A DNA stretch of 64,000 nucleotides from Clostridia bacterium (GCA_021203845.1 JAJQAK010000185.1:1731-65730); one strand, 5' to 3'; counted from the stretch's first letter, positions 24,621-46,544 are shown. The notes: a model not told the origin generated them from the letters alone. Numbers and translations: made by a program.

Positions 24621-24908
24621 CTACATCAACGGCATATCAATCGGCACGGCGAGACAGGCATCCAGCGCTTTCTTCCAGCCCTTGTACTCCTCACGGTTTG
24701 TCTCCGCGGTTTCCTTCATGTGTTTGCGACAGACTTTCTCGCATTTCTCCAGCGTCGCCCTGTACTTGTCGCAGGCATCCGGATATGTCTCCGCCCCCTC
24801 TTTTTTCATTTTACCGCCCGACAACATTAACGTGCTTGAATAGTTGAGGGCTTTGTGTACCTTCTCGTCTATCTTCTTCGCTCTGTCGTAAACGTCTTTC
24901 CATTCCAT
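24621..24908 (-). CDS. Small protein, W-x-x-L-x-x-C-x-x-x-P family
   Basis: 95 aa, MEWKDVYDRA...KGWKKALDACLAVPIDMPLM. Its RBS is GGGAGGTAG. Confidence 0.7.
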   Translation of the reverse strand: MEWKDVYDRAKKIDEKVHKALNYSSTLMLSGGKMKKEGAETYPDACDKYRATLEKCEKVCRKHMKETAETNREEYKGWKKALDACLAVPIDMPLM

Positions 24909-24934: not shown

Positions 24935-24963
24935 ATTATACCACGCGAACCGTTATTTGTCAA
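24935..24963 (-). promoter_or_regulatory. Consensus promoter TTGACA-17-TGGTATAAT
   Basis: The -35 is at 24963-24958 and the -10 at 24940-24935, with an extended TG. The upstream element is GCGTAAAAGTA. Confidence 0.7.
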
Positions 24964-26933: not shown

Positions 26934-28508
26934 TTAAGCCCACTCAGTTTTACTGCCCCCCCCCGAAGTGGTTGCCTTGGGGCTGTTTGCCGCTGAAACG
27001 TCGCTACCTTTACTTATGTACGGGAGGCTACTGTTTTCTGCCTGTCTTGCCGGCAAAACAACCCCTTCGCCGTTGTCGCCTTTAATGTAGATACCTCTGA
27101 GTTGCCCCGGCTGTTTTGCCCACGGTAGTTCTATTATTTTGTTGGCATAGTAGAACTTTGGATTCTCGAACTGGTTGGCCGTGTCCAAAAGCATTTGAGC
27201 ATTGATTGCCATCCTTGTTTTCCCTGAGGGCGTCTCGACGACATCTGAAAATCCGTTTATGAAAACGCCAAAATCCGAGTATTCTGCTCTCTTGTGTTCC
27301 TCTTTTGCTTTCGACTTGGTAGAATTGACGAACTTTGACAAATCATCCACCGTGATGGGAAGCTCTGTACGTGCAGTTCCCTTGGTATTGTCAATAATCG
27401 TGTACACCATGTGCTGCCAGTTATTTGTCGGCTTGCCGGGGTCGTCTGACACGCTGACGCCACTGTTGAACCTCACTCCCATGTACCCGTTGCTGTAAAA
27501 CTGTTTTCCCTCGCTGTCCACAAGAACTTTGTTGTTTGTGCCTACCTTCTTGTCCGCCGTCCTAATTAGCGCGTTCAACGATTTTGTCTGTTTCTTGCTT
27601 GTGACCGTTTGGGTATTGGGATGCGAAGCCGGTGTGTTTGCCTTTGCGGAGGTTTCCGTCGCAGACTTGGGAATCTCTTTTTTCTCAGGACTTGCGCTCG
27701 TGCCCTTGCCTCGTTCGAGCCCCTCCATCATGGCGGGTCTCACTTTCTCGTGCCATAACTTGTACGTTTCGGGCGCGAATTTGTCCTGTTTCCCCTCACC
27801 GTACAGCTTGTCGATTCTCTTGATGTTTTTGTCGAGGAAGTCCTTGAGTTGTTTCTTCTCCTCGGCAACCGTAGCCGTCATGATACCGGACGCCTCGTCT
27901 TTTTTGATTTGACTTTCCAAATGTTTTTGCTGATAGTACACGTATTGCACGTCCGCATGAGCCACCATCTTCCTCACGGAGTCGCGGCGCAACTTTCTCA
28001 TGTACTCGAAATTTGAGCCGGGCGTAACGCTCCCCTCCTGACCGCCTTGCTTCAAATCCTCTTTCAAGACATTGTTGAGCCTTGCCTTGACGTTCTTCAT
28101 AAGCACGGCCTTCTCTCCACTTGAGCCTTTGAGACTTTTGAACGTCTGCGTTGCGTGGTCTATCGCTCTCTTGGCTTGGGGATATTTTTTGTCAACTTCA
28201 GCGAATTGCTTTGACTGCCACCCTCTCGCCTCTTTGAGTATCTGCCTGTCTTTTGCCTCTTTGACTATCTCCTTTGCCGAGCCGGTCTTTTGAAGCGTCG
28301 CATAAGCCTCCGTGGGGCTCACTCCCTCGCCTTTGAGGGCTTTCCAGCAGTCCTTGGGTGAAAAGCCCGTTGTGTCGATGCCGAGAGCTTTGCAAAGTCC
28401 GTACGGCAGTCTTGTGTTCCCGCCTCCATGATGGGCCTCGCTTTCGTCCCTGTCGCCTTCGGCATCCATGTTCATAAGTTTGTAAATCATACGGTCTCTT
28501 TCTTTCAT
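26934..28508 (-). CDS. Module-tagged protein with helical linker and C-terminal clamp-like domain
   Basis: 524-aa ORF. The N-terminus is MIYKLMNMDAEGDRDE...GGNTRLPYGLCKALGIDTTGFSPKDCWKALKGEGV. The C-terminal ~190 aa are homologous to both repeats of 31569..32795. Confidence 0.7.
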   Translation of the reverse strand: MKERDRMIYKLMNMDAEGDRDESEAHHGGGNTRLPYGLCKALGIDTTGFSPKDCWKALKGEGVSPTEAYATLQKTGSAKEIVKEAKDRQILKEARGWQSKQFAEVDKKYPQAKRAIDHATQTFKSLKGSSGEKAVLMKNVKARLNNVLKEDLKQGGQEGSVTPGSNFEYMRKLRRDSVRKMVAHADVQYVYYQQKHLESQIKKDEASGIMTATVAEEKKQLKDFLDKNIKRIDKLYGEGKQDKFAPETYKLWHEKVRPAMMEGLERGKGTSASPEKKEIPKSATETSAKANTPASHPNTQTVTSKKQTKSLNALIRTADKKVGTNNKVLVDSEGKQFYSNGYMGVRFNSGVSVSDDPGKPTNNWQHMVYTIIDNTKGTARTELPITVDDLSKFVNSTKSKAKEEHKRAEYSDFGVFINGFSDVVETPSGKTRMAINAQMLLDTANQFENPKFYYANKIIELPWAKQPGQLRGIYIKGDNGEGVVLPARQAENSSLPYISKGSDVSAANSPKATTSGGGSKTEWA

Positions 28509-29995
28509 AATTTATCTTCCTCCCCCCACAATGCCTTAACCAATGCGGGTCTTACTTTTTCACGCATGAATTTTCGCCCCTCCTCACTCATCTGTCCTCG
28601 CTTGTAGGTCGTGTCTATTTTGTTGAGACTTTTGTTTAAGAAATTCTCGTACTCGCCTTTTTCATCTTCCAAAACCGAACTCGAAACGCCCTTTTTCTTC
28701 AGGCTGTCGAGCCGGTCTTGCATATGCTTTTGCCTGTAGTACATCCCCGTGACGTCGGCGGTCGCCATCTTCTCGGTTATGTCTTTCTCCCTCGCAGCAA
28801 GTTGTTTCTTTTCCTCCTCGTCTTGAGATTTGAGCCTTGCCCTCGTGGTGTCGCCAAGAGCCCGTTTGAGCGTCGTGTGGACGTTCTGCATAAGATACGC
28901 CGTGTCGCCGTATGAATGTGCGTTTGGGTCTTTTTTGAGCTCTCTGAACGTGTTATCGACGTCTGTGAGCGTCTTTGTAATTTCGGGATATTTTGCATCT
29001 ATGCCCGATTTGCTCTTAACGTCCTCAACCTTCACTATCGCCCTTTCTCCGTTCAATAAAGCGTTGAACTCCGCTTGCGCCTTTCGGGTCGCCTCCGCTC
29101 CATGCTTGGTCGCCTCGCCCACTTTGTCCGCGGCTTGAATGACTTTTTCGAGCCTTTCTCCGGCTTCGGGATGTCTTTCTTTGTATTGTTTTAGGTCTTG
29201 CGGATGCGAACCGAGCTCAAGCACTCCCTTGAGGTCTCTCACTTTGTTGCCGACTTCCTCAATGTCCTTATCGGTTGCCGTACTCGCTCCGCCTATCTTC
29301 TTGAAACAACTTGCCATCGAATTGTAATTGTGGCGGTAGAAGTCACTGTCGGCATCTATGTCTTTTAATGGTTTCAACATTTTGGAAAGCCGTTTTTTGT
29401 CCAGCTCGTCTGTTTCATTGTCTATAAGCTGTTGAAGCGTTTTTCCTGCCGCTATATAATCGGCGTTGCTTTCGTCTCCCCATTGGGGGTAGCTTAAAAC
29501 GCCTTTTGAGAGCATTTTGTCGAACTCTTTCAGCCTTCTTATACTTCCATTGTATGCCGTGGATATGCGGCTCGCCGCCGAGGCGGAATGTGGTATCGCA
29601 AGTTTTGCCTTATGTTCAAGCTCTTTATCGGTTATCGGCGTGTCCTCCGTGGCTCCTTTCGGACGATAATGCGTTGACGAGTGTTGGCTGTTCGTAGTCG
29701 GTTTTGTGCCCCTATAATGCTCCTGCCTAACCTTGTGCTTGTAGTTACTTATATTCTTGTACTTTTTGAGCGAGCCATATGCCTCGTCGGGAGTTATGCC
29801 CTCGCCCTTCAAAGCCTCCCATGCAGCCCTCGGTGACGTGCCCGCCGGCAAGTCTATACCGAACTCCTCACACAGACCGTACGGAAGTCGGTTGTTGCCG
29901 TGACCCCCTCCCTTCTTTTTCTTCGGCTCATCCTCGTCCTCCGCGTCGCCGCGAATGAGGCGATATATCATTCTCTGTCTTTCCTTGGAGCTCAT
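28505..29995 (-). CDS. Module-tagged helical protein, cargo unknown
   Basis: 496-aa ORF. The N-terminus is MIYRLIRGDAEDEDE...GHGNNRLPYGLCEEFGIDLPAGTSPRAAWEALKGEGI. It shares the linker motif YY.QKH...EKVRPA with 26934..28508. Confidence 0.7.
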   Translation of the reverse strand: MSSKERQRMIYRLIRGDAEDEDEPKKKKGGGHGNNRLPYGLCEEFGIDLPAGTSPRAAWEALKGEGITPDEAYGSLKKYKNISNYKHKVRQEHYRGTKPTTNSQHSSTHYRPKGATEDTPITDKELEHKAKLAIPHSASAASRISTAYNGSIRRLKEFDKMLSKGVLSYPQWGDESNADYIAAGKTLQQLIDNETDELDKKRLSKMLKPLKDIDADSDFYRHNYNSMASCFKKIGGASTATDKDIEEVGNKVRDLKGVLELGSHPQDLKQYKERHPEAGERLEKVIQAADKVGEATKHGAEATRKAQAEFNALLNGERAIVKVEDVKSKSGIDAKYPEITKTLTDVDNTFRELKKDPNAHSYGDTAYLMQNVHTTLKRALGDTTRARLKSQDEEEKKQLAAREKDITEKMATADVTGMYYRQKHMQDRLDSLKKKGVSSSVLEDEKGEYENFLNKSLNKIDTTYKRGQMSEEGRKFMREKVRPALVKALWGEEDKL

Positions 29996-31572
29996 CTTCC
30001 TTCTCCTTTGAGGCTTTTGCTTATCTCGGTAAGCGTGTTTCTCGTCATGTACCTGTATACCTTGGTTCTTCCCTCGGCGAACTTATACTTGCCTGCGTCC
30101 ATTCTGCTTACAGCATTGTCGCATTTACGTGCTATCTTGCCGAGCTGTGCGTTTTTCTTCGCCTCCGACATATCGGGGTTGTTGCGAATCGCGTCTATCT
30201 GTCCGCAAAGATTTCCCATGCTCTTGCCGTATGCGTCCATGTCTCGACTCAAATATTTCATATAATTGGGATTGTTCTTCGCGAACTTCGAGTTTGTGAC
30301 CTTGTCTTTCATTTTGGTAAACGCATTTTGGTCAAACGTGAGATTGCCGTAGTTCACTCCCGACTCAAAGACTTTTTCCGCTTGCTTGTGCTCGAAGTCA
30401 AGCCTCTCTTTTTGCCTGCTCATCCTTTCGCGCTCGGCCGCGATTTGGTCTTGCGACATCACCTTTTTATTGGTTGCTCCTTCTTCCTCCTTTTCGACGG
30501 CGGCCCCGCTTTCTTTGTCTCCGCTTTTCTTCTTGTCCCGCAAAAGCAACGCACCCATCGCGGCCCCTATGGGCCCTAACATGGCGGCAAGCACGAGTGA
30601 AAGAACTTTGGCGGCGGCTCCCGGCGAAGTCTTTGAATCCTGAACTTTCCCTTTTGCCTCTTGTGCGGGTTTCGCAACTTTCTTGTCAAACTCCTTTATG
30701 GTCTTGTCGTCGCGCCTCATTGTGTTGAGCGTTTTCATCTCACCGCTCCAGTATCTGTACGCCTCTTTGTCACCGTTTGCCTTCGCTATGGCCATCTGCT
30801 CCTTTATTGAGGCCGACAACTCCTTGTAGTTGTACTGCGGCGCTTTATACGGCGTGTTGAGAGGGTCTTTGCGGTATTCATTGAGTGTACCCTCATGCTC
30901 GGTTTTTGCCGTCTTTACGGCCGTCTTGGTCCGTTTTGCCTTCTTCGCCTGCTCTTTCTTGCCCGCAGGTTGCTTTGTCGCCATTTCTTGCTGTTGTGCT
31001 TGCTCCGAATTTTGCGCTTCTGCAACTTGTGCGGACGATTGCCCGGGATTTTCTTTCTTTACTTCAACCTTGTCCCCTCCCTCTTGAACGGTCTGCGTCT
31101 CAGTCACGGGTTGATTGCCTTGTGTGACGGTCGGCTCGGATATAGGCTGATTGCCCTCGGAAACGGGTGGCTGAGCGGACTTCTCTTTCTTCTCGCCCAA
31201 TCCCTCGGTCGGATTGACTTTCCCCGTGGCGGGCGCAACTTTCTTACTACCCTTGAAACCTTCTATCGTGCCGTGCTCCGCAAGGTGCTTATATGCGGCT
31301 TCTTGGCTTATGCCTTTGCCCTCAAGAGCTTTCCATGCATCCCCCGGCGTCGCATCTTCGGGGAGTTCTATGCCGTACTGCATACACAGTCCGAACGGCA
31401 ATCTCGTGTTTCCGTGCCCGCCTGTACTTCCTCCTCCGGAACTTTTGTGCATCCCGTGACTCCGGATGATTCTGTTGGGATTCTCCTCCTCGTCGTCGTC
31501 ACCGTCCGCGTCCAAATTGAGCATATGAGCCATCATTTTGGCCCTTGCGTCCCTTGCATCGTAGTGCGTCAT
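29992..31572 (-). CDS. Module-tagged protein with P/Q/E-rich region and one predicted transmembrane helix
   Basis: 526-aa ORF. The N-terminus is MMAHMLNLDADGDDDEE...GHGNTRLPFGLCMQYGIELPEDATPGDAWKALEGKGI. A hydrophobic stretch AAKVLSLVLAAMLGPIGAAMGALLL is encoded at about 30546-30630. Confidence 0.7.
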   Translation of the reverse strand: MTHYDARDARAKMMAHMLNLDADGDDDEEENPNRIIRSHGMHKSSGGGSTGGHGNTRLPFGLCMQYGIELPEDATPGDAWKALEGKGISQEAAYKHLAEHGTIEGFKGSKKVAPATGKVNPTEGLGEKKEKSAQPPVSEGNQPISEPTVTQGNQPVTETQTVQEGGDKVEVKKENPGQSSAQVAEAQNSEQAQQQEMATKQPAGKKEQAKKAKRTKTAVKTAKTEHEGTLNEYRKDPLNTPYKAPQYNYKELSASIKEQMAIAKANGDKEAYRYWSGEMKTLNTMRRDDKTIKEFDKKVAKPAQEAKGKVQDSKTSPGAAAKVLSLVLAAMLGPIGAAMGALLLRDKKKSGDKESGAAVEKEEEGATNKKVMSQDQIAAERERMSRQKERLDFEHKQAEKVFESGVNYGNLTFDQNAFTKMKDKVTNSKFAKNNPNYMKYLSRDMDAYGKSMGNLCGQIDAIRNNPDMSEAKKNAQLGKIARKCDNAVSRMDAGKYKFAEGRTKVYRYMTRNTLTEISKSLKGEGR

Positions 31573-32795
31573 TCTTCATACCTCGCTTTTTTCATGGTTT
31601 TATAATCTCTGGAATCCTTTATGGTATTGTACCTTACCGGGCACACAATCGCATCGCCGTCATCACCTTTAATGTATATGGGGTTTAACGGATTCCCTGA
31701 CAAATAAATTTTAGGATTTTTAAGCTGACTCGCCGTGTTGTATAAAAGCCTTGCGTCCATTGCGACATTACCCGCGCTCATCGCATTGCTGCCGTAAATT
31801 GAGTTTACCTCGTGCGGAAGATTCTTGTAGTCCGTCAGAACTATTTTGTAGTCCTCTTTGCTCGCGCGTTTCCCTGTCTCCTCTTTTACGACCGCCCCTA
31901 TGCCTTTCATAAACTTGGTCAAATCCTGCATAGAAAACTCTTTAAGTTCGTCCGTACAGGCCTCTCTCGTTTCGTCTATGAGATTGCACACCTTCTCCGC
32001 GACTTGAGATTTGTCCTCCGCCGGGTTCGCAATCACCGGCTTGTCATAGCGTATGCCCATGAATTTGTTGCTGAACACCTGTTTACCATCCGACGCATCA
32101 TACACTTTGGGGGCTTCATTGCTTATTCTCGCAAGTTTCTCCATCGCTGCGACGCGTTTTTTGTCGCCGTCAGATATGGGTTTCAGTGCATTGGGATTTT
32201 CGGGTTTCTGCGGAGCCGCCTCCTCACCCCTCGGTACATCCTTTATATCGGTTTTCTTTGCCTCGCCCGTCATCGGCATTATGAAGCCTTCACCGTCCGC
32301 TCCCCTGACTCCCAAAACGGCAACCCTTTTTGTTGCGTCTGTCATCGGGAAAAACTCGGCATCGGGGAAGATTTGTAAAGCGTTTCGTAGATATTTCGGG
32401 TCAACGCTTATTTCCTTGTCGCCGAACAAAAAACTTATGACATTCTTTTGGAATTTGCCTTCCTTTTTAATACCGTACTCTTTCTCGTACGGCGTCGGTT
32501 TGAGTTTCTTTTTCTGCTCGGCTTCGTCTTTTTTTGCCTTATCCATGAAATAACCGAGCTCCTGTGGCGTTATGCCGGCTTTCACGGCGTCGCCCCGATT
32601 GTAGTTGTCCAGCATATCCTCAATCAAGTCCATGAGGTGAAGGATCCTGTTGTCTTCTCCGACTTCATCGGTTATCGCGTTGTTGAACCTGAACGCTATG
32701 TCGCCATTCGTATAATATTGCCGCCCCTTACCGTCTTGTACTACCGGTTTTTCTGGCCATTTCTTCTCATCATTGAGTGCGTTTATGAGCTTCAT
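31569..32795 (-). CDS. Untagged protein with two tandem clamp-like domains (cargo half of a split gene?)
   Basis: 408-aa ORF whose ATG overlaps the stop of the module-only ORF as ATGA. Two internal repeats each end in ...D.(K/R).L.(N).....(P)....(I/V).(G..G.G)(F/A)I(M/V).P(M/V). Confidence 0.7.
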   Translation of the reverse strand: MKLINALNDEKKWPEKPVVQDGKGRQYYTNGDIAFRFNNAITDEVGEDNRILHLMDLIEDMLDNYNRGDAVKAGITPQELGYFMDKAKKDEAEQKKKLKPTPYEKEYGIKKEGKFQKNVISFLFGDKEISVDPKYLRNALQIFPDAEFFPMTDATKRVAVLGVRGADGEGFIMPMTGEAKKTDIKDVPRGEEAAPQKPENPNALKPISDGDKKRVAAMEKLARISNEAPKVYDASDGKQVFSNKFMGIRYDKPVIANPAEDKSQVAEKVCNLIDETREACTDELKEFSMQDLTKFMKGIGAVVKEETGKRASKEDYKIVLTDYKNLPHEVNSIYGSNAMSAGNVAMDARLLYNTASQLKNPKIYLSGNPLNPIYIKGDDGDAIVCPVRYNTIKDSRDYKTMKKARYEE

Positions 32796-33133
32796 TCTCC
32801 GAGCATTGAGCTTTTCCGTACTCGGAGCCTTTTTCGTCGCGGGTTTTTTTCGGTCATTTTCGCGTTGTTGCTCGCCTTGACTTCGCTCGCATACGGCTTT
32901 ATCGTGCCCTCTTTTTGGAGTGACGAATACGCGGCTTTCGGGTCAACCCCTTTGCCCTGTAAAGCCTTCCAGCAGTCCGTCGGCGAGAACCCCGTCGTGT
33001 CGATACCGAACTCCTCACAGAGCCCATATGGCAGGCGGGTATTGCCGTGAGAGCCTTTGCCTCGTCCTTCCTCATCCTCGTCCGCATCTAAATTGAGTAT
33101 GCGGGCCATCATTCTTCCTCTTGCATTTGTCAT
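32792..33133 (-). CDS. Stand-alone copy of the shared N-terminal module
   Basis: 113-aa ORF, MMARILNLDADEDEEGRGKGSHGNTRLPYGLCEEFGIDTTGFSPTDCWKALQGKGV..., followed by a short basic tail. Confidence 0.65.
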   Translation of the reverse strand: MTNARGRMMARILNLDADEDEEGRGKGSHGNTRLPYGLCEEFGIDTTGFSPTDCWKALQGKGVDPKAAYSSLQKEGTIKPYASEVKASNNAKMTEKNPRRKRLRVRKSSMLGE

Positions 33134-33136
33134 AAC

Positions 33137-35137
33137 TTACCTCAGTTTGTTGTAATCAAGTGGTGCCTGTTCTACCACCTCCAAGTCGATAAACCATTTG
33201 CCGTTCGTGTCCTTCTTGCATTTCGTTATCTTGAAATACGTGTCTCTTTGGAGCAACATTTCGTTCTCGTCGTGTATGTCGGCCGCCGTGAAATCTCCGC
33301 CTCTGTAATTGTGGTGCGTGGCATATGCGTTTGGGGCTATGTACGCGGCTTTCGTGCCTTTCGGACAGTAAATGTTCAATATAACGTTCCGATTGAACCC
33401 CGTGTCTTTGGAGGCCCCGCACGAGCAAAAGCCCGGCATATGCAGAACCTTGCCTTCCTTTATCATGTTCTGTATCTCGTCCATTGAGAGCTTTTCGACC
33501 CCCAGCGTCCGCTCGAAACCGCGGTCGGTCACGCCCCTCTTGAGCCACGTGTCGTTTTCCAGCGAGCTTTTCGCTATCAACTTTGTGAGCGTGTCTATGC
33601 TTTTTCTCAACTTTTTGTCATCGTAAATGGCGTCGTTGTTGCCTATGCCCTTGTAGCTGATTGCCATCATGTCTTTGTCATCGTATCCCGACAATGCCGC
33701 GGTCGCCCAGTATGAGGTTTTAGCATAATCCCCCACGGCCCTCAATTCGTTGTTTGTGGCATTGCTAAACAGCTTGTCCGCCATTCCTTTGAACTTTTCT
33801 ACGGACTCCGCTTTTGATTTACACCATATCGCGTTGTCCTTTCGCTCTTTTGTGAACGCCGAGTTGTCGAATTTGACGTGTTGTCCTCTTATGCAGTTTG
33901 ATTTGTTGGCTTTCGGGTTGTCGTACTTCCCGGCTGCCTTGTCTGCATTGGTCAATCTGCTCTTTAACGCACTTTTATATAAATAACTCAACGACGGCGA
34001 TGAGCTCAGTTGCCTGAGCCCACTCCACAGTTGTGCCTTGTATAACTCCGTCGAGTTTAGAAGTTTTCCGCCGTTTTTGATGTCGTCGCATTTTTCCTTG
34101 AGTTTTTCCCTTATCTCCTTAAGTCCTTCATTTCGTTCTTCAGCCGTGAGTGTTTTATTTTCCATCACGGCGGCTATTCCGTCAACCACCTTATTCATTG
34201 CCTCGGCGTATTTCATAATGCCGTCCGCGATTTCGTTCTCATAGTCCATGTGCTTTTGGCAGTATGTGTTCTCACTTAAATCGTCAAGCCCCTTCGCCTG
34301 TTTTGCCTCGTCGATTTGCAGTTTGTTTAAATCAAACGCCGAGAACCCTTCCGCTCCGGCGTATTGAGCCGCCATTTTGTCATGTTCATCGCTTATCTTC
34401 GCAAGTCCGCCGTAAATGTCTATTTTTGAGTCGGGATGCCGTGCGTTAAAATCGTCAAGCCGTTGCTGAAATTTGGGGGACGTCGCCGATGCCATCAATT
34501 CCCCATAATCTACCATTTTGCTGTGAAAGCCCCACAAATGCTCCGGCACGGTCTCTTGAAGCTTTTTATACGGCTTAAGTATGTTCACGTTGTATGACTG
34601 AATGAAATTTGCGTCGTCCCATAAATCGGTCAGTATTTTTTTGTTGGCGAGAAGCCTCTCCCTTTCCTTCGTATTGGTCGTGTAACCGAGTTGTTGGTTT
34701 ACCGAACTCATGGCAAGGGAGATGCTTTGACGGTCTAATTCTTGAGGCACTGCGGTGAACGGGTTTTTGTTTATGCTTTCCGCTATGGCTTTACACTTGT
34801 CGTATATGTCTTTCACACCCTTCGCCATTTTAGGCTCCTTGGGTTTGTTTTTTTTCTCCTCGACCTGTTTTCCTTCCTTCTCCTCAACGTACTTGTCTAT
34901 CGTACCGTCCTTTTCGAGAGCCGCGTATGCTTCATCGGCGTCTACCCCTTTGCCTTGCAAGGCGTCCCAAGCCTGTTTGGGCGTTGCACCTTTCGGGAGC
35001 TTGATGCCGAACGCCATACACAACCCGTACGGAAGTCTCGTGTTCCCGTGCGAACCTCCTCCGCCTCGCTCGTCCTCATCGTCCTCGGCATCCGTATGAA
35101 GATACCGCTGTATCATGTTTAACCTCGAAACATTCAT
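33137..35137 (-). CDS. Module-tagged ADP-ribosyltransferase (R / S-x-S-like / E-x-E type)
   Basis: 666-aa ORF. The N-terminus is MIQRYLHTDAEDDEDE...HGNTRLPYGLCMAFGIKLPKGATPKQAWDALQGKGV. The C-terminus has WLKRGV (about 33535-33555), GFCSCGAS (about 33410-33437) and ENEMLLQR (about 33244-33272). Confidence 0.75.
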   Translation of the reverse strand: MNVSRLNMIQRYLHTDAEDDEDERGGGGSHGNTRLPYGLCMAFGIKLPKGATPKQAWDALQGKGVDADEAYAALEKDGTIDKYVEEKEGKQVEEKKNKPKEPKMAKGVKDIYDKCKAIAESINKNPFTAVPQELDRQSISLAMSSVNQQLGYTTNTKERERLLANKKILTDLWDDANFIQSYNVNILKPYKKLQETVPEHLWGFHSKMVDYGELMASATSPKFQQRLDDFNARHPDSKIDIYGGLAKISDEHDKMAAQYAGAEGFSAFDLNKLQIDEAKQAKGLDDLSENTYCQKHMDYENEIADGIMKYAEAMNKVVDGIAAVMENKTLTAEERNEGLKEIREKLKEKCDDIKNGGKLLNSTELYKAQLWSGLRQLSSSPSLSYLYKSALKSRLTNADKAAGKYDNPKANKSNCIRGQHVKFDNSAFTKERKDNAIWCKSKAESVEKFKGMADKLFSNATNNELRAVGDYAKTSYWATAALSGYDDKDMMAISYKGIGNNDAIYDDKKLRKSIDTLTKLIAKSSLENDTWLKRGVTDRGFERTLGVEKLSMDEIQNMIKEGKVLHMPGFCSCGASKDTGFNRNVILNIYCPKGTKAAYIAPNAYATHHNYRGGDFTAADIHDENEMLLQRDTYFKITKCKKDTNGKWFIDLEVVEQAPLDYNKLR

Positions 35138-35147
35138 GTCTCACTCC

Positions 35148-37127
35148 TTACAGTTTGGAATAGTCGAGCGGAGCCTGTTCAACCACGGCAAGCGTTATGT
35201 GTATTTCGCCATAATCATCCCGCCTTATTTTCAGTGGCTTGAACCCCGTGCCTCTTTGTAAAATGAGCTCATCCTCAAATGTCGTATTGCTGAAAAAATT
35301 GCTGTCCCTTAATGATTCTTCTAATTTCTCATCCGATACCCCAAACGCGCTTAACCCCGACACATATAATGCGTTCATGCCTTTCGGACAGAATATGTCG
35401 AGTTTTATGTTGGAGTCCTTTGCCGTGCCCTCGGATGCTCCACATGAACAAAACGACGGCTGATACACGGTCTTGCCGCTGTTCACGGCTCTTTTCAGTG
35501 TCTCGTATGATGTGTTTTCTACCCCGAATAGTGCTGTTATTCCGGAGCCACAGACACCTCTTTCAACCCACACGTCTCTGTCCAGTTCGCTCTTGCCTAT
35601 TATCTCGGTCAATGCGTCTATCGCCTTTCCCTTGCCGTATGCGTCCATGTTTACGTTTCCCACGCCTCTAAAGTCCGACTTCTCCCAGCAGTAACCATTG
35701 GGGAAAAACGATTCATACCCACACAATGGAAGATTGAAGCCGTCTGAACCGCCCGTATAATCTATCGCCGATTCTATTTGCTCTGTGGTCGCATTTGCGA
35801 GCGCCTTTTTTGTGGCTTTCTCGAACACGCCCCTTGACATATATGGGTCATAACAGACAGTGGCTCTGTCCAGCCTGTCCTCGGTAAATGACTTTGCATT
35901 GAATTCCTTATACATTCCCTCAATGCAATTCTTCTTTGTTGCGTTTGGATTGTTGAACTTGCCCGATGCAATTTCCGAGTACGATGCGTCCTCCATTTTT
36001 TGGCAAAGTTCCCAGTCGGGGCGACATCTTTCTGCCATTTCGTTAATTCCGCAACGCATTGCGTCTTTATAAACCGATGGCCCCTCTCCCTTCAGCAATC
36101 TTCTGCAAAGTGTTTCATGTAACTCAAGATATGCCTGTCTTTGAGCTTCTTTATCGCCCTTTTGCGGTATCGCTTTAATTTGGGCGGCGATTTTGTCCAT
36201 ACTGCTTACATATCTCTCGGCACTTTTGATTATGTTTTCCATAAGTTTGGGATGTTTCTTGCCGTATCTTGAGTTCCGAAGTTTCTCCTCGGCCGCCACA
36301 AGTTTCTTCCTGTCACATTTAAGCCCATTTACATCATACGCTCCAAACACCTTTTTTGCGTCCGTTTCCATAAAGTCATAATACTCGGCTTTGTCTCTTA
36401 TCTTTTTGAGCTCTCCCCTAACTTTCTTGCCGAGTTCCGGATATTTTTCATCAATTTGTTTTAAATATCCTTTGAATTGTTTGTCATTAACATCGTCAGA
36501 CAAAAGATGGCGAATCATATGCGCCCTACCCTCAAGTTCGAGGCCAGACTCCATTTCTAAAAAACTGGCATATTTGCGCCCTATGTCGGCATATTTGTTA
36601 CAGAAATCACTCATCCCCTCGAACTTGCAGGCGGACAGCACTTTGTTTTCTTTCTCCTTGAGCCACTTTTTTTCATCCGCGCTCCTCGTGTCTTCACTCA
36701 AGCGTTTTCGTATGTTGTCCAAGCTGTTTTCCGTGCGATAGAATGACGGCACGAACTCCTTATCTACTCCCAAATTGTCAATATCTCTTTCGAGTATTCT
36801 GTTAAATACTTTACCTATGTAATCTATGTTGTCGTTTATGTCGTCCGCAAAATACTTTCTGCCGTATTTTGCGTCCGCGGCGTTCTCCTCGTTCCAATCC
36901 TCACCCTTTATCATCGCAACATAGTCATCTATCGTGCCATCCTCTCCGAGCGCCTCGTATGCCTTACTGAACCTCACCCCCGCCTGCCTCAATTCCCACC
37001 ACGCATCTCGCGGTGTGGCATCGGGTGGCAATTCAATACCGAACTCTTTACACAGTCCGAATGGTAACTTATTATTCCCATCCAAACGCAATAATCTTTG
37101 TATCATTGCCGCCCTTGCGTAGTTCAT
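35148..37127 (-). CDS. Module-tagged ADP-ribosyltransferase whose module lacks the acidic run
   Basis: 659-aa ORF. The N-terminus is MIQRLLRLDGNNKLPFGLCKEFGIELPPDATPRDAWWELRQAGV. The C-terminus has VWVERGV, PSFCSCGAS and EDELILQR. Confidence 0.75.
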   Translation of the reverse strand: MNYARAAMIQRLLRLDGNNKLPFGLCKEFGIELPPDATPRDAWWELRQAGVRFSKAYEALGEDGTIDDYVAMIKGEDWNEENAADAKYGRKYFADDINDNIDYIGKVFNRILERDIDNLGVDKEFVPSFYRTENSLDNIRKRLSEDTRSADEKKWLKEKENKVLSACKFEGMSDFCNKYADIGRKYASFLEMESGLELEGRAHMIRHLLSDDVNDKQFKGYLKQIDEKYPELGKKVRGELKKIRDKAEYYDFMETDAKKVFGAYDVNGLKCDRKKLVAAEEKLRNSRYGKKHPKLMENIIKSAERYVSSMDKIAAQIKAIPQKGDKEAQRQAYLELHETLCRRLLKGEGPSVYKDAMRCGINEMAERCRPDWELCQKMEDASYSEIASGKFNNPNATKKNCIEGMYKEFNAKSFTEDRLDRATVCYDPYMSRGVFEKATKKALANATTEQIESAIDYTGGSDGFNLPLCGYESFFPNGYCWEKSDFRGVGNVNMDAYGKGKAIDALTEIIGKSELDRDVWVERGVCGSGITALFGVENTSYETLKRAVNSGKTVYQPSFCSCGASEGTAKDSNIKLDIFCPKGMNALYVSGLSAFGVSDEKLEESLRDSNFFSNTTFEDELILQRGTGFKPLKIRRDDYGEIHITLAVVEQAPLDYSKL

Positions 37128-37199: not shown

Positions 37200-37589
37200 T
37201 TATTTATTTTCTTTCGATTCTTCCAGTACGTCTCGCAAGGCTTCGAGTATTTTGACAAACACCTTGCTGTGTTGCTCGTTAAACGGGTTGCTTTGCATAT
37301 AATGCGTCACTTCCCGCCAGTACGAGAAATATAGGTTTCCGAGGTCTTTCCAGCTTTTGACTTCCGACAGGAGTTTCTTTAGCTTGTCCGCATCGTCCAT
37401 CGGTATCGGTTTACCGCCGCAATATTTCTCCGAAAAGCTCTTGCCATGGTCCGATATGAATCCATACTCTTTGGATGCTTTCATAATCTCCTCGCCTATG
37501 ATTCCGCGCACCGAAGAAGTTCTCAATCTAAACACGCGTAAATGCCGATTTACCAGTTTCAGCAGCTCCTTTTTGCTTTTCGCCATCAC
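37200..37589 (-). CDS. Small protein, paralog pair member (candidate ART partner/immunity)
   Basis: 129 aa. It contains ...ASKEYGFISDHGKSFSEKYCGGKPIPMDDADKLKKLLSEVKSWKDLGNLYFSYWREVTHY... Confidence 0.7.
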   Translation of the reverse strand: MMAKSKKELLKLVNRHLRVFRLRTSSVRGIIGEEIMKASKEYGFISDHGKSFSEKYCGGKPIPMDDADKLKKLLSEVKSWKDLGNLYFSYWREVTHYMQSNPFNEQHSKVFVKILEALRDVLEESKENK

Positions 37590-37972
37590 TCGCCCTTCTT
37601 TTCCAAAACTTCTATGAGCCTTTTGATTATCGCCGAGAACACCTTAACGTTCTCCTCGCTGAACGGGTCATCGTACTCGTCGAAATGCGTGACCTCTCGC
37701 CAGTACGAGAAGTATAAGCCCCCCAAATCCTTCCAGCTGTCACACGTAGCAAGCACCTTTTTGAACTCCTCATCGTCGCCGTTGGGTATCTCCTCGCTGT
37801 TGCAGTATTTCTCCGAAAATCTGTTACCGTGGTCTGACTTGAAGCCGTACTCGGACGCAAGGTCGAACATCTCATCGTTCATTTTGTCCTCGTTCCCACC
37901 TTTCCTGAACGTCTTAAGATGGCGTTTCAAGATGTCCAAAAGTTTCTTTCTGCTCAGTTTTTTCTCCGCCAT
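37586..37972 (-). CDS. Small protein, paralog pair member (candidate ART partner/immunity)
   Basis: 128 aa. It contains ...ASEYGFKSDHGNRFSEKYCNSEEIPNGDDEEFKKVLATCDSWKDLGGLYFSYWREVTHF... and overlaps its paralog by 4 nt. Confidence 0.7.
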   Translation of the reverse strand: MAEKKLSRKKLLDILKRHLKTFRKGGNEDKMNDEMFDLASEYGFKSDHGNRFSEKYCNSEEIPNGDDEEFKKVLATCDSWKDLGGLYFSYWREVTHFDEYDDPFSEENVKVFSAIIKRLIEVLEKKGE

Positions 37973-37998: not shown

Positions 37999-38027
37999 AT
38001 TATAACACATATCCGCCACATTGTCAA
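37999..38027 (-). promoter_or_regulatory. Consensus promoter TTGACA-17-TGTTATAAT
   Basis: The -35 is at 38027-38022 and the -10 at 38004-37999. The upstream element is GCGTGAAAGTG. It sits 18 nt after the portal-fusion stop. Confidence 0.7.
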
Positions 38028-38045: not shown

Positions 38046-41000
38046 TTAAGAGCTTTTCTTTTTTGTTTTCTTTTGTAGCTTTCCGGGGTAATCCACTTTG
38101 TCGTAGTCGAGCGGGTACTGCCCCACAACGGCGAGGTCAAGATACACTTTCCCATGCTCCCCCTCCGTGCATTTGAGAAGTTTGAACTCCGTGTTTCTTT
38201 GGAGCAGAAGTTCGTTCTCGCTGCCCACGTCGTAAAAATTCTCGCCCTTGTAATTGTTCTTGCCGCCGTAATAGCTTGCCGGGGCAATATATGCGCCCTT
38301 CGTGCCTTTCGGAGCATAAATGTTGAGTATGAACTTCTTGTCCGTGAATCCCGCGTTTTTGGATGCCGAACATGAGCAAAAACTCGGCTGCATGAACGTT
38401 TCGCTGCTCCCCACTTTCGCCTTGAGCGCGTCAAACGAAAACTCGTCAAGCCCGAACATATCGCAGATACAGCCCCTACTCGTGCCTCTTTGAAGCCACA
38501 TATCTTCAGGAATCTCGTTGTTGTTTAAAAACTCTGTCAAGTCCTTTACAGTCTTGTCTATTTTGTTCTTGGACATATCGACGTTGCCTATGCCGACGTA
38601 ATTGTCCTTCTTCCAGCCGTCCCGATACCCCGCGAGCGTCCTGTTGTAGTTTCCGCTACCTTTTGTGTACTCCCATACCGACGTGCGTTGCGGCCCCGTG
38701 GCATTGGCGAACGTCTCACGCGCCCACGGCTTGAGTTTCTGTACGGACGATGCTCTAGTTTGACACCATAAGGCGTTGTCCATTCTCTCTTGCGTGAACG
38801 CATCCTTTTCAAACGTGGTTGACATCCCCGGCATGACGTTTTCGGCACTCACGCCTTTTGCGTTGTACTTACCGTTGTGTATGTCGGAGTATGTGATAGT
38901 GTTTGCGAGTGAATCCACCAAATCACCCCACGTGCCGGCGCAAAAACCGCTTATCTTGTATAGCCCCGATACCATATAGTCCTTATATCCGATGCCTACA
39001 TTCGGGTTTGCGTAATTGTTATTGTCTTGTCTGTCCCTTGCCGCGACATTCAGTTTTACGCTTAAGTCTCTTAACTCGCCGATTTTCTGCGGAGCGGTTT
39101 TGTTGGCATCCGACGTTATCCGGTTTATTTCATCGGCGACTTTCTGCATATTGTCGATATATTCATCGACTTCCTCCCATTTCTTCTCGACGTATTTGGG
39201 ATGGGATTTGCCGTATGTGGAGTTCTCGATTTCTTCCATGACGTTCCCCGTCGCCACGTGGTTGGGCATGAGTTTATCCACATCGAACGCGGAATTGAAC
39301 AGGTCTTTTGCAAAATCGCTTTCCGCCTCTATCTCATTGTACATTTCGGCGGCATCCTCCCGCATTTTGTCATATGCCGCTTTTAGTCCCGGGATGTCGG
39401 AATGTTCTTCTATTGTCTTTTTGAAGTCCTCTCCGCAGATTTGATTGTAATAATAGGACGCGGCGGACATCGCAGTGGCTACGCGCCGAGAATCTTTGCA
39501 GTAGAGTTTCAGCTGCTCATAATCACTTATCTTTTTGTCGATTTCTTTCCAAACAGTCGCCATTTCACGCTCTTTGGCATATTCCGTCACAAGTTGCTTA
39601 TAATATTCTTTCAGCTCGGAGTCATATGTGTCTTTTGCATATTCCGAAATCATCCAGCCGCTATCGAACGATGGGTATTTGAAAGGGTCTAATCTTTGGG
39701 TAAATCCGTTTTCCTTTATAAGCTCCGCGTTCTCATCGTTTACCGTTTTGGTGCGGTCTATGAGGTCTTTGGCGAACACAACACCCTCCACGTCCTTGAA
39801 CTTTTCAGCGGGCTCGGTCTTTTCGGGCTCTTTGGACGCTTTCTTTGTTTCGGGATGTTCTTCGTTCACCTTCTCTACTATGCCCTTCGTGTTTCCGGTC
39901 TTTTCAAGCTCCGTGTACACGTCCGTGGGCTTAATCCCTTTCCCCCTCAAAGCATCCCATGCGTCTCTCGGCGCGGCTCCTTCGGGCAAATCTATGCTGA
40001 ACTCCTTGCAAAGTCCGAACGGCAGTCTCGTGTTGCCGTGGTATTTGTGGTGCGTATCCCTCGGCTCGTCCTCATCGTCCTCTGCGTCCGTGTGGTAGCT
40101 TCCCTGTTTCCAGTTTGTGTACAGCCTCACCGCGTCACCGAACGGATTAAACAGCAAGTCATGCATTTCCTCTAACTCGTCGAGTGTGTAATACTTGGGT
40201 TTCGTGAGCTCGCTTGTGTTTCTCGTCGTGGGTGTGCCCTCAAACTCCGTGCATATGAATATGTCGGGACGAAGCTCCGTTTCTTTGTCGGTCTTGCCTC
40301 TGCCTATTCTCACCATGACCTTCGGAATTATGGAGAACTCCTCTTGAGTTTCACGAATTGCGGCATCGAGACTGTTCTCGCCTTCTTCCAAATGACCGCC
40401 GGGGCCACATAATGTGCCTATGCCGTTGCCCTCCTCTCTCATGGCCGTGAGCACCTTGCCGTTATGGAGAACTATTACCCCGCACGAGGGTTTCTCGTAG
40501 TCTATTTCGTGTGTGTATGCATCGCCGGTCGTGGGTTTGCGATATTCAAGCTCCAGCTCCTCTTTGTAATCGCGCTTTATTTCGTCAAGCGCCTTCTCGG
40601 CATCGGTTTTTTCGGGGAACTCGAACGATTTGGCGTTCTTTTGTCTGTACGCCTCTTTGATTTCCGACAGTCGTATCTCCGCGGCATAATTGGGGTCATT
40701 CACAGACGAGTATTTCGGCGTGTCAACGGGCGCGTCCATAGGTATGTCGATGGGGGTGTAATCGGGGGTGTAAACGTCCCCTTCGTCCGTCTCGCTCTCT
40801 TTGTTTGCCTTACCGTATTCTGCCTTTATTTTTTCGAGTTCTTCACCGACGGAGTGGGGCTCGGCCTGAACGGACGTATCTTGTCCGGCTCTGTTTGTAA
40901 GACCTTCGGAATCGGGGTTATCAATAACAATTTTTTCGGAGAAATCAGATGACATGGGTGATTCCTCGGCCTGTCCTTCATTTTTCGTCTGTGCCCGCCC

Positions 41001-42908
41001 CTCAAGACCGAACCCTTCCGCGGTGTTTTTGTCTTTATATTCTTCTTTTATGTTGTTTAGAGCATATTGCGCCTTGAGACCGCCGAGAACGCTCTCTGCA
41101 GTGTTTTCTTCGCTCCCTTGATATTCTGCTCGTGTTTCGTTACGGGCCTCTCTGTCGCTTTCTGTGGGCTCTGACGACCTCACAAGCGGATTGTTCTTTT
41201 CATTCTCAACTCCCAGCTCCGTGGATGTAGGATTGCTGTTGGGTATGTCCTGTTTTGCCGGCTCGCCTATCTGCATACCCTTGGAGTTTTCCTCTTTCGC
41301 CTCCTCCTTCTCCTCATCGTCGGGGGTAGCCGACTGCGGTTCATTGGAAGCCTCTTGTCCTCCGTCGGGAGTCTGCCCTTGCCCTCCTCCGAGCATGGCC
41401 ATCATTTGAGACATCGGGTCGTCCCCTCCGCCTTGCTGTTGCGGCATATTGGCCATGAGCTCATCTTCCGGTATGTCGTCAAGCATGGTATCTATGTCGA
41501 AGTCATCCTCTTTCGCGAGCGCCTTTCTGACCTCTGTGGGGTCCAAAACTCCGAGCTGTATGTATTGGCTCGCCGTGCTTGCTTTCGTAGCCTGCGTGCT
41601 TGCTTTCGTGGCGTCGAGTTGTGCCTGTTCCGTTTCACTCAAGCTCCAAAGCGACTCGAACGCTATTTCTATTTTCGGCACTTCGTCTATTTTTTTCGTG
41701 TTGACGCCCGCCTGAAATATAAGTCTCAAAAGATAACCTATGTTGTTGCGAAGATTTCCCTCCTGCATACCGGCTATTTTGTTGTAGTAGTTTTCGAGGT
41801 CTGACTGACCCGTGGCGTTTTGTCCTGCGGGCGAGCGTCCGAAAAGTATGGTCTGCGGTATGCCGGTGGCCGCCGACAACATATTGCAAGTCGTGTTGAT
41901 TATGTCCGATACGCCCGTGTACGTGAACTGAAGATTTGAGTAGTCTTCGCCGTCCGCGTCCAAAAGCATGGTGTTCAAAAGCCCCTTGGCTTGGTCTATT
42001 GCGTCGAGTCTTTTAAGGACGTCCTCCTCACCGTGCTCTCTTGAAAGTTGCTCTTGCATCCCTTTCATTTTGTATATCGGTTGTACGGACTTCTCCAAAA
42101 ATCGGGGGCCGTCGTCGTGAGCCACCTGCACATTGCGAAGCTCTCTTTTTATGCGTAAATATTCCGGCATCCCCCACATCTCATATGTGAAGTTTGAGCA
42201 TTTTTCGGGCAGTCTACCGCCTTTAAAAAGTAAAACTCTTGACTCGTGTACCCAAAAACATCCGTACTTGCTCGCCACGTAGTACCTTTCGGGCTGTCCG
42301 AGCCTTGAGCCGCGCATTTTGAACGGGTCATGCCCGCTGTATGAAAACATGGTCGTTATGTCGGGCACTATGACGGAGCGGTCGTAAACCCTCATTTCGT
42401 CCACGGACTCTATGTTGTCCCAATCCACGGGCTCGTCTATGCCTCTCCCGTCGTTTATGAGCATGACAATCATTGAGCCACCGAACAATCTTTGCCACCT
42501 CAACGCGTCGGTTGCCTGTTCCTCAAAACTCAAATTCCGAAGCGACTCTTTGTAGAAGTCTATGAGCTTGTCGTCTTTCACGTCCTTGAGCGTGAAGCCC
42601 TTTCGCATGGCATCTTCAGCAGGCGCATCTATTATTCTCGCAAAAATGGCGTTGCCTTCGTATATGACGGCAAGCTCTCCGTCCATTATCGGGAGTTCTC
42701 TCTCATAATGGTAATGCTCCATCGTGTCTTTGGACGTGCCGTAGTTGTTTATCATGTTTACGTAGCCGTCCGCACGATACTCATCCATTCTGTAATCACC
42801 GGGATTGTAGTTGTATGTCTCGTAAGCGTTTTTGAGTTTTATCCCCGTCTGTTTCTCTACCGCGCGGAGATACCTTTTCATTATCGCTTTCTGTTTTTCC
42901 GAGTCCAC
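38046..42908 (-). CDS. Giant fusion: portal (DUF1073-type) - low-complexity linker - NUDIX hydrolase - shared module - helical region - ADP-ribosyltransferase
   Basis: 1620-codon uninterrupted ORF directly downstream of the large terminase gene. The NUDIX box GHLEEGENSLDAAIRETQEEFSI is at 40329-40397. The module HTDAEDDEDE...HGNTRLPFGLCKEFSIDLPEGAAPRDAWDALRGKGI is at about 39880-40095. ART motifs are MWLQRGT (about 38480-38505), PSFCSCSAS (about 38360-38390) and ENELLLQR (about 38197-38222). Confidence 0.75.
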   Translation of the reverse strand: MDSEKQKAIMKRYLRAVEKQTGIKLKNAYETYNYNPGDYRMDEYRADGYVNMINNYGTSKDTMEHYHYERELPIMDGELAVIYEGNAIFARIIDAPAEDAMRKGFTLKDVKDDKLIDFYKESLRNLSFEEQATDALRWQRLFGGSMIVMLINDGRGIDEPVDWDNIESVDEMRVYDRSVIVPDITTMFSYSGHDPFKMRGSRLGQPERYYVASKYGCFWVHESRVLLFKGGRLPEKCSNFTYEMWGMPEYLRIKRELRNVQVAHDDGPRFLEKSVQPIYKMKGMQEQLSREHGEEDVLKRLDAIDQAKGLLNTMLLDADGEDYSNLQFTYTGVSDIINTTCNMLSAATGIPQTILFGRSPAGQNATGQSDLENYYNKIAGMQEGNLRNNIGYLLRLIFQAGVNTKKIDEVPKIEIAFESLWSLSETEQAQLDATKASTQATKASTASQYIQLGVLDPTEVRKALAKEDDFDIDTMLDDIPEDELMANMPQQQGGGDDPMSQMMAMLGGGQGQTPDGGQEASNEPQSATPDDEEKEEAKEENSKGMQIGEPAKQDIPNSNPTSTELGVENEKNNPLVRSSEPTESDREARNETRAEYQGSEENTAESVLGGLKAQYALNNIKEEYKDKNTAEGFGLEGRAQTKNEGQAEESPMSSDFSEKIVIDNPDSEGLTNRAGQDTSVQAEPHSVGEELEKIKAEYGKANKESETDEGDVYTPDYTPIDIPMDAPVDTPKYSSVNDPNYAAEIRLSEIKEAYRQKNAKSFEFPEKTDAEKALDEIKRDYKEELELEYRKPTTGDAYTHEIDYEKPSCGVIVLHNGKVLTAMREEGNGIGTLCGPGGHLEEGENSLDAAIRETQEEFSIIPKVMVRIGRGKTDKETELRPDIFICTEFEGTPTTRNTSELTKPKYYTLDELEEMHDLLFNPFGDAVRLYTNWKQGSYHTDAEDDEDEPRDTHHKYHGNTRLPFGLCKEFSIDLPEGAAPRDAWDALRGKGIKPTDVYTELEKTGNTKGIVEKVNEEHPETKKASKEPEKTEPAEKFKDVEGVVFAKDLIDRTKTVNDENAELIKENGFTQRLDPFKYPSFDSGWMISEYAKDTYDSELKEYYKQLVTEYAKEREMATVWKEIDKKISDYEQLKLYCKDSRRVATAMSAASYYYNQICGEDFKKTIEEHSDIPGLKAAYDKMREDAAEMYNEIEAESDFAKDLFNSAFDVDKLMPNHVATGNVMEEIENSTYGKSHPKYVEKKWEEVDEYIDNMQKVADEINRITSDANKTAPQKIGELRDLSVKLNVAARDRQDNNNYANPNVGIGYKDYMVSGLYKISGFCAGTWGDLVDSLANTITYSDIHNGKYNAKGVSAENVMPGMSTTFEKDAFTQERMDNALWCQTRASSVQKLKPWARETFANATGPQRTSVWEYTKGSGNYNRTLAGYRDGWKKDNYVGIGNVDMSKNKIDKTVKDLTEFLNNNEIPEDMWLQRGTSRGCICDMFGLDEFSFDALKAKVGSSETFMQPSFCSCSASKNAGFTDKKFILNIYAPKGTKGAYIAPASYYGGKNNYKGENFYDVGSENELLLQRNTEFKLLKCTEGEHGKVYLDLAVVGQYPLDYDKVDYPGKLQKKTKKKSS

Positions 42909-46286: not shown

Positions 46287-46544
46287 TTATGAATCGCAGT
46301 AGCGAATCGTGTCCTCTATAAACCCCGCGTCAGCATCCGTGACCTTGGCGTTCATATACTTTTTTGCGAGACGCAACATATCCTCCACCGCCTCGTCCTT
46401 TGCGAGACAGGCATCGTACCAGCCCTCAACCCAATCTTCTCGGTCTTTCTTGCTGTAGTCCCTCGGCGCATACTTCGCTATGAACTTGTGAATTGTCTTA
46501 AGCTGTTCTTCCGTGAGCTTTTTGGCTTCTTCGCACATATACAT
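46287..46544 (-). CDS. Small hypothetical protein
   Basis: The track ORF starts at 46559, inside the RBS GGGAGGTGAG. The ATG at 46544 (MYMCEEAKK) has proper spacing. Confidence 0.55.
   Translation of the reverse strand: MYMCEEAKKLTEEQLKTIHKFIAKYAPRDYSKKDREDWVEGWYDACLAKDEAVEDMLRLAKKYMNAKVTDADAGFIEDTIRYCDS

Follow-up and report, generated by a model that had tools for sequence, protein, structure and literature searches.

The stretch of DNA considered here (in the following the window: 64,000 nt from Clostridia bacterium, GCA_021203845.1 JAJQAK010000185.1:1731-65730; coordinates count from the window start) belongs to a contig of 73.7 kb and comprises the structural half of a myovirus whose tail and head genes are E217/Pam3-like; all genes of the window are encoded on the minus strand. 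Its source is an uncultivated phage of gut Clostridia; genome matches to the leader module described below came only from metagenome-assembled genomes of Clostridia/Eubacteriales, of which at least one carries the label fecal, and a megablast search with a 9.8 kb region against the GenBank phages gave no match. Situated between portal and MuF in the head module are three genes whose products end in an ADP-ribosyltransferase (ART) domain. ART1 (33137-35137, 666 aa) consists of an N-terminal leader module (aa 1-91; 34868-35137; leader-profile hmmsearch E 4e-41), a helical middle part and the C-terminal R-S-ExE transferase (PF03496 at aa 480-654, E 5e-16, corresponding to 33176-33700; PHROG 16625, Bxa ART, at aa 398-661, E 4e-27). 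ART2 (35148-37127, 659 aa) has the same succession of leader, middle and transferase, its leader being a short form that lacks the acidic linker (PF03496 E 1.4e-5; PHROG 16625 E 5.5e-13; leader E 4e-26). The third unit, ART3, is joined in frame to the portal protein and a NUDIX domain in a fusion of 1620 aa (38046-42908; portal at aa 80-438, Phage_portal_3 E 1.4e-76; NUDIX at aa 808-914, E 1.2e-11); here, the leader is internal (aa ~928-1021; 39858-40139) and is followed by the middle part and the transferase (Pfam span aa 1399-1584; 38157-38714; ADPrib_exo_Tox E 1.6e-13). All three ART open reading frames (ORFs) are uninterrupted.

All three domains scored above the Pfam gathering cut-off of PF03496 (ADPrib_exo_Tox; 23.4 bits), with 59 bits for ART1, 25 bits for ART2 and 50.9 bits for ART3, and a further PHROG match was annotated as 'ADP-ribosyltransferase exoenzyme toxin'. 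The AlphaFold2 model of ART1 residues 380-666, calculated from a 10-sequence alignment, reached a mean predicted local distance difference test score (pLDDT) of 88.4 and a predicted template modelling score of 0.88; a Foldseek search of this model against the PDB retrieved 143 matches at E<=1e-3, headed by C3bot1, the Listeria ART Lmo0066, Plx2a, CDTa, Certhrax, VIP2 and iota-Ia (E ~5e-13; TM-score to the target 0.70-0.84). Profile comparison (PF03496, PHROG) thus places all three domains inside the ART superfamily, as an earlier note on this DNA had proposed; the structure search with ART1 points to the C3, VIP2, iota and CDTa class, and the identity of the three as ART domains is virtually certain.

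The motifs that the same note had recognised in all three copies are indeed present and were located by coordinates. The catalytic arginine lies in WLKRG (33533-33547) of ART1, WVERG (35556-35570) of ART2 and WLQRG (38484-38498) of ART3; the equivalent of the S-T-S motif is found in FCSCGAS (33410-33430 and 35433-35453 in ART1 and ART2, respectively) and FCSCSAS (38361-38381, ART3); and the E-x-E of the ADP-ribosylating toxin turn-turn loop is part of ENEMLLQR (33245-33268), EDELILQR (35253-35276) and ENELLLQR (38196-38219). Across 10 homologs, the R-G, F-x-S and E-x-E positions and the Q-R that follows are invariant. The opening motif Y-[TA]-x-x-S...N..L.G, which had been regarded as common to all, holds for ART2, ART3 and the relatives; ART1 reads T-A-A-L-S-G at this place and lacks the asparagine. 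A different register has to be adopted for the serine motif, which had been described as an unusual replacement of S-T-S by C-S-C-x-A-S: The phmmer alignment positions F-C-S-C-G over F-M-S-T-T of Lmo0066, so that the motif is to be read as F-x-S-C-[G/S] and the equivalent of S-T-S is S-C-G in ART1 and ART2 and S-C-S in ART3. The strict S-T-S form is therefore not present, the second and third positions being C and G/S, and only the first serine, which aligns with the serine of the Lmo0066 S-T-T, is invariant. Relatives carry S-C-G, S-T-G or S-T-S, with S-C-G occurring in the unrelated metagenomic proteins P0178-P0180; in consequence, the cysteine is a trait of the subfamily and is not peculiar to this phage. 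In this enzyme class, E-x-E (versus Q-x-E) goes together with arginine as the acceptor, while C3 possesses Q-x-E. From the sequence motifs and the fold modeled for ART1, the products of the three genes are predicted to be mono-ADP-ribosyltransferases of arginine type (R / S / E-x-E) that belong to the C3/VIP2/iota family and are catalytically intact.

Over their last ~300 aa, the three ART proteins share 35-39% identity and 66 invariant alignment columns, and the similarity that had been noted for this C-terminal part extends over the entire unit. In pairwise BLASTP comparisons, ART1 and ART2 were collinear over 694 columns (28% identity, E 1e-76), ART1 and aa 921-1620 of the portal fusion over 699 columns (33% identity, E 7e-95), and ART2 and ART3 shared 29% identity (E 6e-77). 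As judged from these alignments, homology of the whole units is far beyond chance, and the three full-length collinear matches indicate that the genome holds three copies of one ~690-aa leader-middle-ART unit. That one or more of these copies, ART2 above all, might be decaying or catalytically dead and kept as structural filler of the head is suggested by the marginal Pfam score of ART2 (25 bits against the cut-off of 23.4), its missing acidic linker and its position as the most divergent copy; since all three ARTs retain R, S, E-x-E and Q-R in uninterrupted ORFs, and a DNA identity of only 60-77% between copies with conserved protein motifs points to old duplicates under purifying selection, such a decay is very improbable. 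Several host targets or an arms race, as the earlier note had suggested in view of the three diverged copies, are plausible.

The nearest sequence relatives of the ART domains are MuF-ART fusions (P0029, P0178) and the Bxa-like 869-aa protein of Bacteroides phage Versailles. A word-indexed protein search yielded few ART relatives, and when the ART domain was compared by tblastn with 50,697 phage records (E<=1e-5), the sole matches were the Bacteroides Bxa-like protein and a mycobacteriophage VIP2-like toxin; T4 Alt, ModA and ModB were not matched.

The leader that precedes each ART is a module of ~85 aa that is present in 13 copies in the window (profile E 4e-26 to 3e-42), 12 of them N-terminal and one internal (in the portal fusion); neither the leader nor its occurrence on ten further cargo genes besides the three ARTs featured in the earlier note. 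Three parts can be distinguished: a basic amphipathic helix (A-R-x-R-M-I-x-R-x-L), a junction [RHN]-[LMT]-D-A that leads into an acidic run and a Gly-rich linker, and a core with the pattern H-G-N-T-R-L-P-[YF]-G-L-C...G-I-x-L-P...P-x-x-A-W-x-A-L-x-G-K-G...A-Y-x-x-L. According to AlphaFold2 (alignment of 35 sequences), the core is built from four short helices (residues 31-96, pLDDT 82-93) and holds two G-[IV]-x-x-P turns, the first helix being uncertain and the linker disordered. The leader is not covered by any model of Pfam, PHROG, NCBIfam or PADLOC, and a tblastn search against the 50,697 deposited phage genomes found no match. Recent duplication or gene conversion of the leaders was considered and rejected, as the DNA identity between copies is only 60-76%; the leader copies are thus old.

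A word-indexed protein search recovered few, mostly short leader matches; when 1.84 billion cluster representatives were searched exhaustively with the profile, 563 leader proteins were identified at E<=1e-3, 295 of them at E<=1e-10. Among 175 retrieved family sequences, the leader was located within the first ~130 residues in 169 and was solely internal in six; some family members begin at the core and have neither helix nor acidic linker. Four of the 175 contained two leaders (one of these is also among the six internal-only sequences): P0032 (1886 aa; leaders at 843-925 and 1355-1438), P0036, P0049 and P0060. Judged by this arrangement, the two-leader proteins display the pattern that would be expected of polyproteins cut into several cargos. 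By these searches, the leader marks out a large family of uncharacterised proteins, restricted to uncultivated phages; the leader itself is a new element that was not found described, whereas head-associated ARTs, portal/MuF NUDIX fusions and fusions of effectors with predicted injection have already been described.

Leader-cargo genes occupy ~21 kb, about a third, of the 64-kb window. Four of the cargos are zincin-like with an HExxH motif: those encoded at 21736-23355, 24983-26632 (HEMGH) and 48198-49940 (HELGH; weak ATLF match), which form one paralog group (leader profile, BLASTP), and at 50507-51814 (HEVGH), whose cargo matches PHROG 324 at positions 332-608 (E 8e-15). The gene at 46631-48184 combines the leader with a Zeta-toxin-type P-loop kinase (Pfam Zeta_toxin, E 3.2e-12). 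Cargos of unknown function are encoded at 23352-24278, 26934-28508, 28505-29995 and 29992-31572 (the leader of the last with a long Gly-rich insert). The remaining unit (31569-33133) is split into a leader-only ORF (32792-33133, 113 aa) and a leaderless cargo ORF (31569-32795, 408 aa) that are connected by an ATGA overlap; the cargo ORF is paralogous to 26934-28508 (E 5e-20), and the unit resembles a leader-cargo gene in two pieces, for which a frameshift, an error in sequencing or true translational coupling could account. The genes 26934-28508, 28505-29995 and 31569-32795 constitute a further paralog group; tandem diversification is thus a general property of the arsenal and not specific to the ARTs. 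For seven cargo domains, nothing was obtained from Pfam, PHROG, NCBIfam or PADLOC, and among 101 leader-family members elsewhere few cargos were recognisable (ART, Zeta toxin, ADP-ribosyl cyclase, peptidases and a restriction-system specificity (S) domain).

The remaining head genes are a stand-alone MuF (SPP1 gp7-like) head protein without toxin extension (20367-21302; PHROG 324 positions 64-328, E 4e-61), a prohead protease (DUF2213/PF09979) continued by a very acidic scaffold (18217-20277; Pfam E 2.6e-34; E 3.5e-66 to the head maturation protease PHROG 530) and the major capsid protein (16614-17669; PHROG 264 from aa 46, E 3.9e-86). The protease/scaffold protein contains a nearly pure Asp/Glu run of ~200 residues, far longer than in the aligned relatives, which is preceded by a repeat region rich in Pro, Gln, Lys and Ala. 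PHROG 324 represents one protein, the first half of which corresponds to the window MuF and the second half to the cargo of 50507-51814; together with the closest ARTs being MuF-ART fusions, this suggests that the leader is interchangeable with a fusion to MuF. Directly upstream of the first leader gene, a leaderless protein with an ArdC-N single-stranded-DNA-binding domain and an MPTase-PolyVal zincin of antirestriction type is encoded (51933-52898), and another part of the window encodes a Lar restriction-alleviation domain.

The genomic context of the leader was compared in 26 related loci from IMG/VR. These contain one to four leader genes per ~20 kb and, in the ~20 loci with detected head genes, the leader genes are positioned beside or between the genes of TerL, portal-NUDIX, MuF, protease/scaffold and major capsid protein; conservation is high among the head genes (E ~1e-170), the cargos differ, and none of the 26 loci encodes an ART. 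Two ARTs are present in an independent 70-kb genome (L030), the gene order of which (portal, leader-ART, NUDIX-leader-ART, 123-aa ORF, MuF, protease, capsid) includes leader-ART units collinear with those of the window. As NUDIX-leader-ART is a single gene in L030, the junction is real and the window differs only by the further fusion to the portal; an assembly artefact as the origin of the portal-ART fusion is unlikely in view of this gene and of other proteins with internal leaders. The portal-NUDIX fusion is kept across the phage clade (L001-L024 of IMG/VR), with a second NUDIX ORF behind it in L010; in L030, the NUDIX domain is separate from the portal and forms the start of the ART gene.

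Taken together, the three ARTs belong to 13 leader-tagged cargo proteins in the head-morphogenesis module of an E217/Pam3-like myovirus, and their position between portal and MuF, the fusion of one copy to the portal and the MuF-ART fusions as closest relatives favor the view that they are carried in the virion, which we consider likely. Conversely, the ARTs could act unpackaged and late in the producing cell like T4 ModA/ModB, the leader then serving as an oligomerisation, regulatory or DNA-binding module, e.g. as a tether to phage DNA: The ART genes are co-transcribed with late genes, the small, helical core with its two turns could bind nucleic acid, and some family members start at the core, with neither helix nor acidic linker. 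Such a function would not account for the fact that many phages keep their leader genes strictly among those of TerL, portal, MuF, protease and capsid, for the same cargos being fused to MuF or portal elsewhere, or for the parallels of helix and motif with the protease/scaffold described below; in addition, Foldseek searches against PDB and BFVD revealed no DNA-binding fold match for the leader, so that neither a helix-hairpin-helix nor a SAP-like fold of the core received support. Late action of unpackaged enzymes is accordingly quite improbable.

Within the window, the strict helix motif is restricted to the N-termini of leaders and to the C-terminus of the protease/scaffold, where the ARxRMIxR motif is carried by the terminal tail (18220-18291). 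A tail of the form A-R-[DEKN]-R-M-I-A-[KR] ends the protease/scaffold in seven of seven distinct relatives examined and in L030. In the HK97 maturation protease, the C-terminal tail acts as the encapsidation signal, and scaffolding proteins bind the coat protein by C-terminal helices. The portal-fused leader lacks the ARxRMIxR helix, as would be expected if covalent attachment made the helix unnecessary.

The second feature shared by leader and head proteins is a candidate cleavage motif. The pattern [RH]-[LMFYT]-D-[AGS] occurs 23 times in the 19,821 residues of the predicted window proteins, nearly always in proteins of the head module, and a related broader pattern matched 20 times in minus-strand frames versus once in plus-strand frames. 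In the leaders, it is positioned at the junction between helix and acidic run. The protease/scaffold itself contains five R/H-[LMY]-D-[GSA] motifs, several of them conserved in relatives and one located ~20 residues before the C-terminal helix; the motif is also present in MuF, and in the capsid protein R-[FY]-D-[SG] at aa 41-44 directly precedes the family-homologous part (kept in all 8 phages of an alignment of 8). Outside the window, R-[MFL]-D-[AD] was found 13-27 residues upstream of the core in 104 of 151 leaders, internal ones included. The sole structural protein outside the head module that carries the motif is a 570-aa protein of the tail/baseplate region (5165-6877; K-R-Y-D-A at residue 15). 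From its placement, this distribution is that expected of a maturation-protease site and suggests a candidate cut site; for the combined model of helix and cleavage, we would put the chances at about even.

Nine near-consensus sigma-70 promoters were identified on the minus strand (63200, 59600, 58555, 53336, 51864, 46605, 38027, 24963 and 21671) and none on the plus strand; seven of the nine possess an upstream element TGC(G/A)xxAAAxTx before TTGACA. Four belong to the part between 53 and 63 kb, which looks early, and the remainder lie within the late head module. Three promoters directly follow a toxin-like cargo and precede small ORFs. The first of these (37999-38027; 12/12 consensus positions, extended -10) is located just after the stop codon of the portal-ART gene and before two paralogous ORFs of 128 aa (37586-37972) and 129 aa (37200-37589) with 48% identity, of which the former is a candidate for ART immunity or an accessory function. 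The second (46577-46605) follows the Zeta cargo and is succeeded by a 90-aa ORF (46287-46559); the third (24935-24963) follows the zincin cargo 24983-26632 and precedes two small paralogous ORFs of 95 aa (24621-24908 and 24325-24609). Behind the ARTs of L030 lies a 123-aa ORF homologous to the 128-aa ORF (E 5e-8), and no homolog of the latter was detected in the ART-less related loci of IMG/VR. An immunity role of the small ORFs is a tentative proposal that we hold slightly less probable than its opposite.

A further explanation draws in part on the toxin-then-small-ORF layout: The ARTs could be polymorphic toxins of Bxa/MuF type that are made late, released at lysis or carried on or along the particles and directed against competing bacteria or the gut epithelium, with the leader as a trafficking or partner-binding domain in place of MuF. 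Indeed, the best PHROG match of the ARTs is the Bxa ART, the closest deposited phage match is the Bacteroides Bxa-like MuF-ART, which is followed by a small ORF and an ADP-ribosylglycohydrolase, small immunity-like ORFs lie downstream of toxin-like genes in the window, and Bxa combines antibacterial and host-cell activities with two immunity proteins (PMC11699363). Yet, Pfam detected no MuF domain on any of the three ART proteins, one ART is fused to the portal, a protein inside the capsid vertex, and the leader helix copies the protease/scaffold tail; moreover, MuF is itself a head protein, so that the Bxa-type explanation differs from packaging and injection mainly in the final target and not in the packaging. 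A role of this kind is considered unlikely, less so than a late action in the producing cell.

The reading preferred here, to which we assign a probability of roughly 60% as a whole, is that the ARTs are packaged into the head and injected. The basic leader helix (ARxRMIxRxL) would mimic the C-terminal tail of the protease/scaffold and thereby draw the cargo into the assembling procapsid; the portal-fused ART3 would be loaded covalently, the helix being dispensable in this case. Cleavage by the maturation protease at R/H-[LMFY]-D-[A/G/S] could subsequently remove the helix, or separate ART3 from portal-NUDIX, and leave free cargo in the head. Ejected together with the DNA, the cargo would modify host proteins by ADP-ribosylation of their arginines as soon as infection begins, in analogy to T4 Alt and to MuF- or portal-fused effectors, and the small ORFs behind consensus promoters may protect the producing cell in the manner of immunity proteins. 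In a still wider and more tentative form, with odds somewhat below even, the leader could be a portable tag for capsid loading and maturation, composed of a scaffold-mimicking helix, an R-Phi-D-[AGS] protease site and a folded core with a possible function in docking or ejection, on an interchangeable arsenal in which each toxic cargo is paired with an early-expressed immunity gene; the gut Clostridia myovirus clade would then possess a virion-delivered polymorphic-effector system.

Several observations weigh against this reading. Beyond fold and family, everything proposed here is drawn from comparison. Many copies of each of the 13 cargos (300-690 aa) would add up to a large load for a capsid of ~74 kb. 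The leader helix of the relatives (YRxRRxxRL) resembles the protease tail only loosely, the R-x-D motif could have a structural role instead of being cut, and neither structure nor sequence comparison links the leader to a protein of known function (nothing better than E 3.6 by Foldseek against PDB and BFVD; tblastn). As regards immunity, the small ORFs match no known immunity family in Pfam, PHROG, NCBIfam or PADLOC; there are two of them for three ARTs, both positioned after ART3 and none after ART1 or ART2; and neither an ADP-ribosylglycohydrolase (ARH) nor a Macro domain was found in the window.

If packaging and injection hold, the leader offers a testable rule for what phages of gut Clostridia choose to inject. 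Should it suffice for encapsidation, this would account for the recruitment of effectors unrelated in sequence and for their exchange between phages, and it would give a handle on effector action against abundant gut bacteria as well as a natural tag for the study of protein loading into HK97-fold capsids.

In comparison with known systems, the three ARTs alone are one more example of the known head-associated ARTs; their triple dosage is unusual, and one copy is part of a portal-NUDIX-ART fusion. With the C3-like, VIP2, iota-Ia and CDTa enzymes they have in common the fold, the arginine of R-G, the serine of the aromatic-x-S-x-x motif and the E-x-E followed by hydrophobic-L-L-Q-R, the E-x-E corresponding to that of iota and VIP2; they differ by an identity of only 16-22% and by S-C-G or S-C-S in place of S-T-S. 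They have neither a secretion signal nor a B-component-binding domain of binary toxins and form the end of a head-module protein with a novel leader.

The Bxa/MuF toxins (PMC5576092, PMC11699363) include the closest ART relative and resemble the window proteins in the arrangement of a conserved, head-associated N-terminal module, a variable C-terminal toxin and small downstream ORFs. Bxa requires Bsi and the hydrolase BAH for immunity (PMC11699363), and the Bxa-like locus of phage Versailles displays the same toxin-then-immunity layout. In the phage described here, the N-terminal module is instead an ~85-aa leader used 13 times in one genome, MuF is a separate gene, and an ARH-type immunity gene is missing from the window.

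Fusions of portal, MuF, NUDIX and ART domains and effectors predicted to be injected have been described (PMC5512222, PMC9503650), as have MuF toxins (PMC5576092). By its NUDIX and ART domains behind the portal domain, the portal fusion belongs to the polyvalent proteins (PMC5512222, PMC9503650): It joins a head anchor to two domains of the NAD/ADP-ribose network, and the ArdC-N plus MPTase-PolyVal, Zeta toxin and ParB-like domains found in the neighborhood of the ARTs are part of the same repertoire. ART1 and ART2 contain a single effector domain each, and most effectors of the window are separate genes with a common leader, in contrast to one giant polypeptide.

The comparison with T4 Alt drawn in the earlier note holds as an analogy and as membership of the same clade by published classification; it does not extend to BLAST-level similarity. 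In T4, the capsid targeting sequence (CTS) is an N-terminal targeting peptide common to unrelated internal proteins and is removed by gp21 (PMC9026906); Alt loses only a propeptide of 7 N-terminal residues, and prohead proteases of T4 type cut after a glutamyl residue (PMC9026906). The logic proposed for the window proteins would be the same, i.e. a head-carried and injected ART and an N-terminal tag on sequence-unrelated proteins that is removed by the protease, but the tag differs from the CTS in its length of ~85 aa, in its folded core and in its candidate motif R-Phi-D-[AGS].

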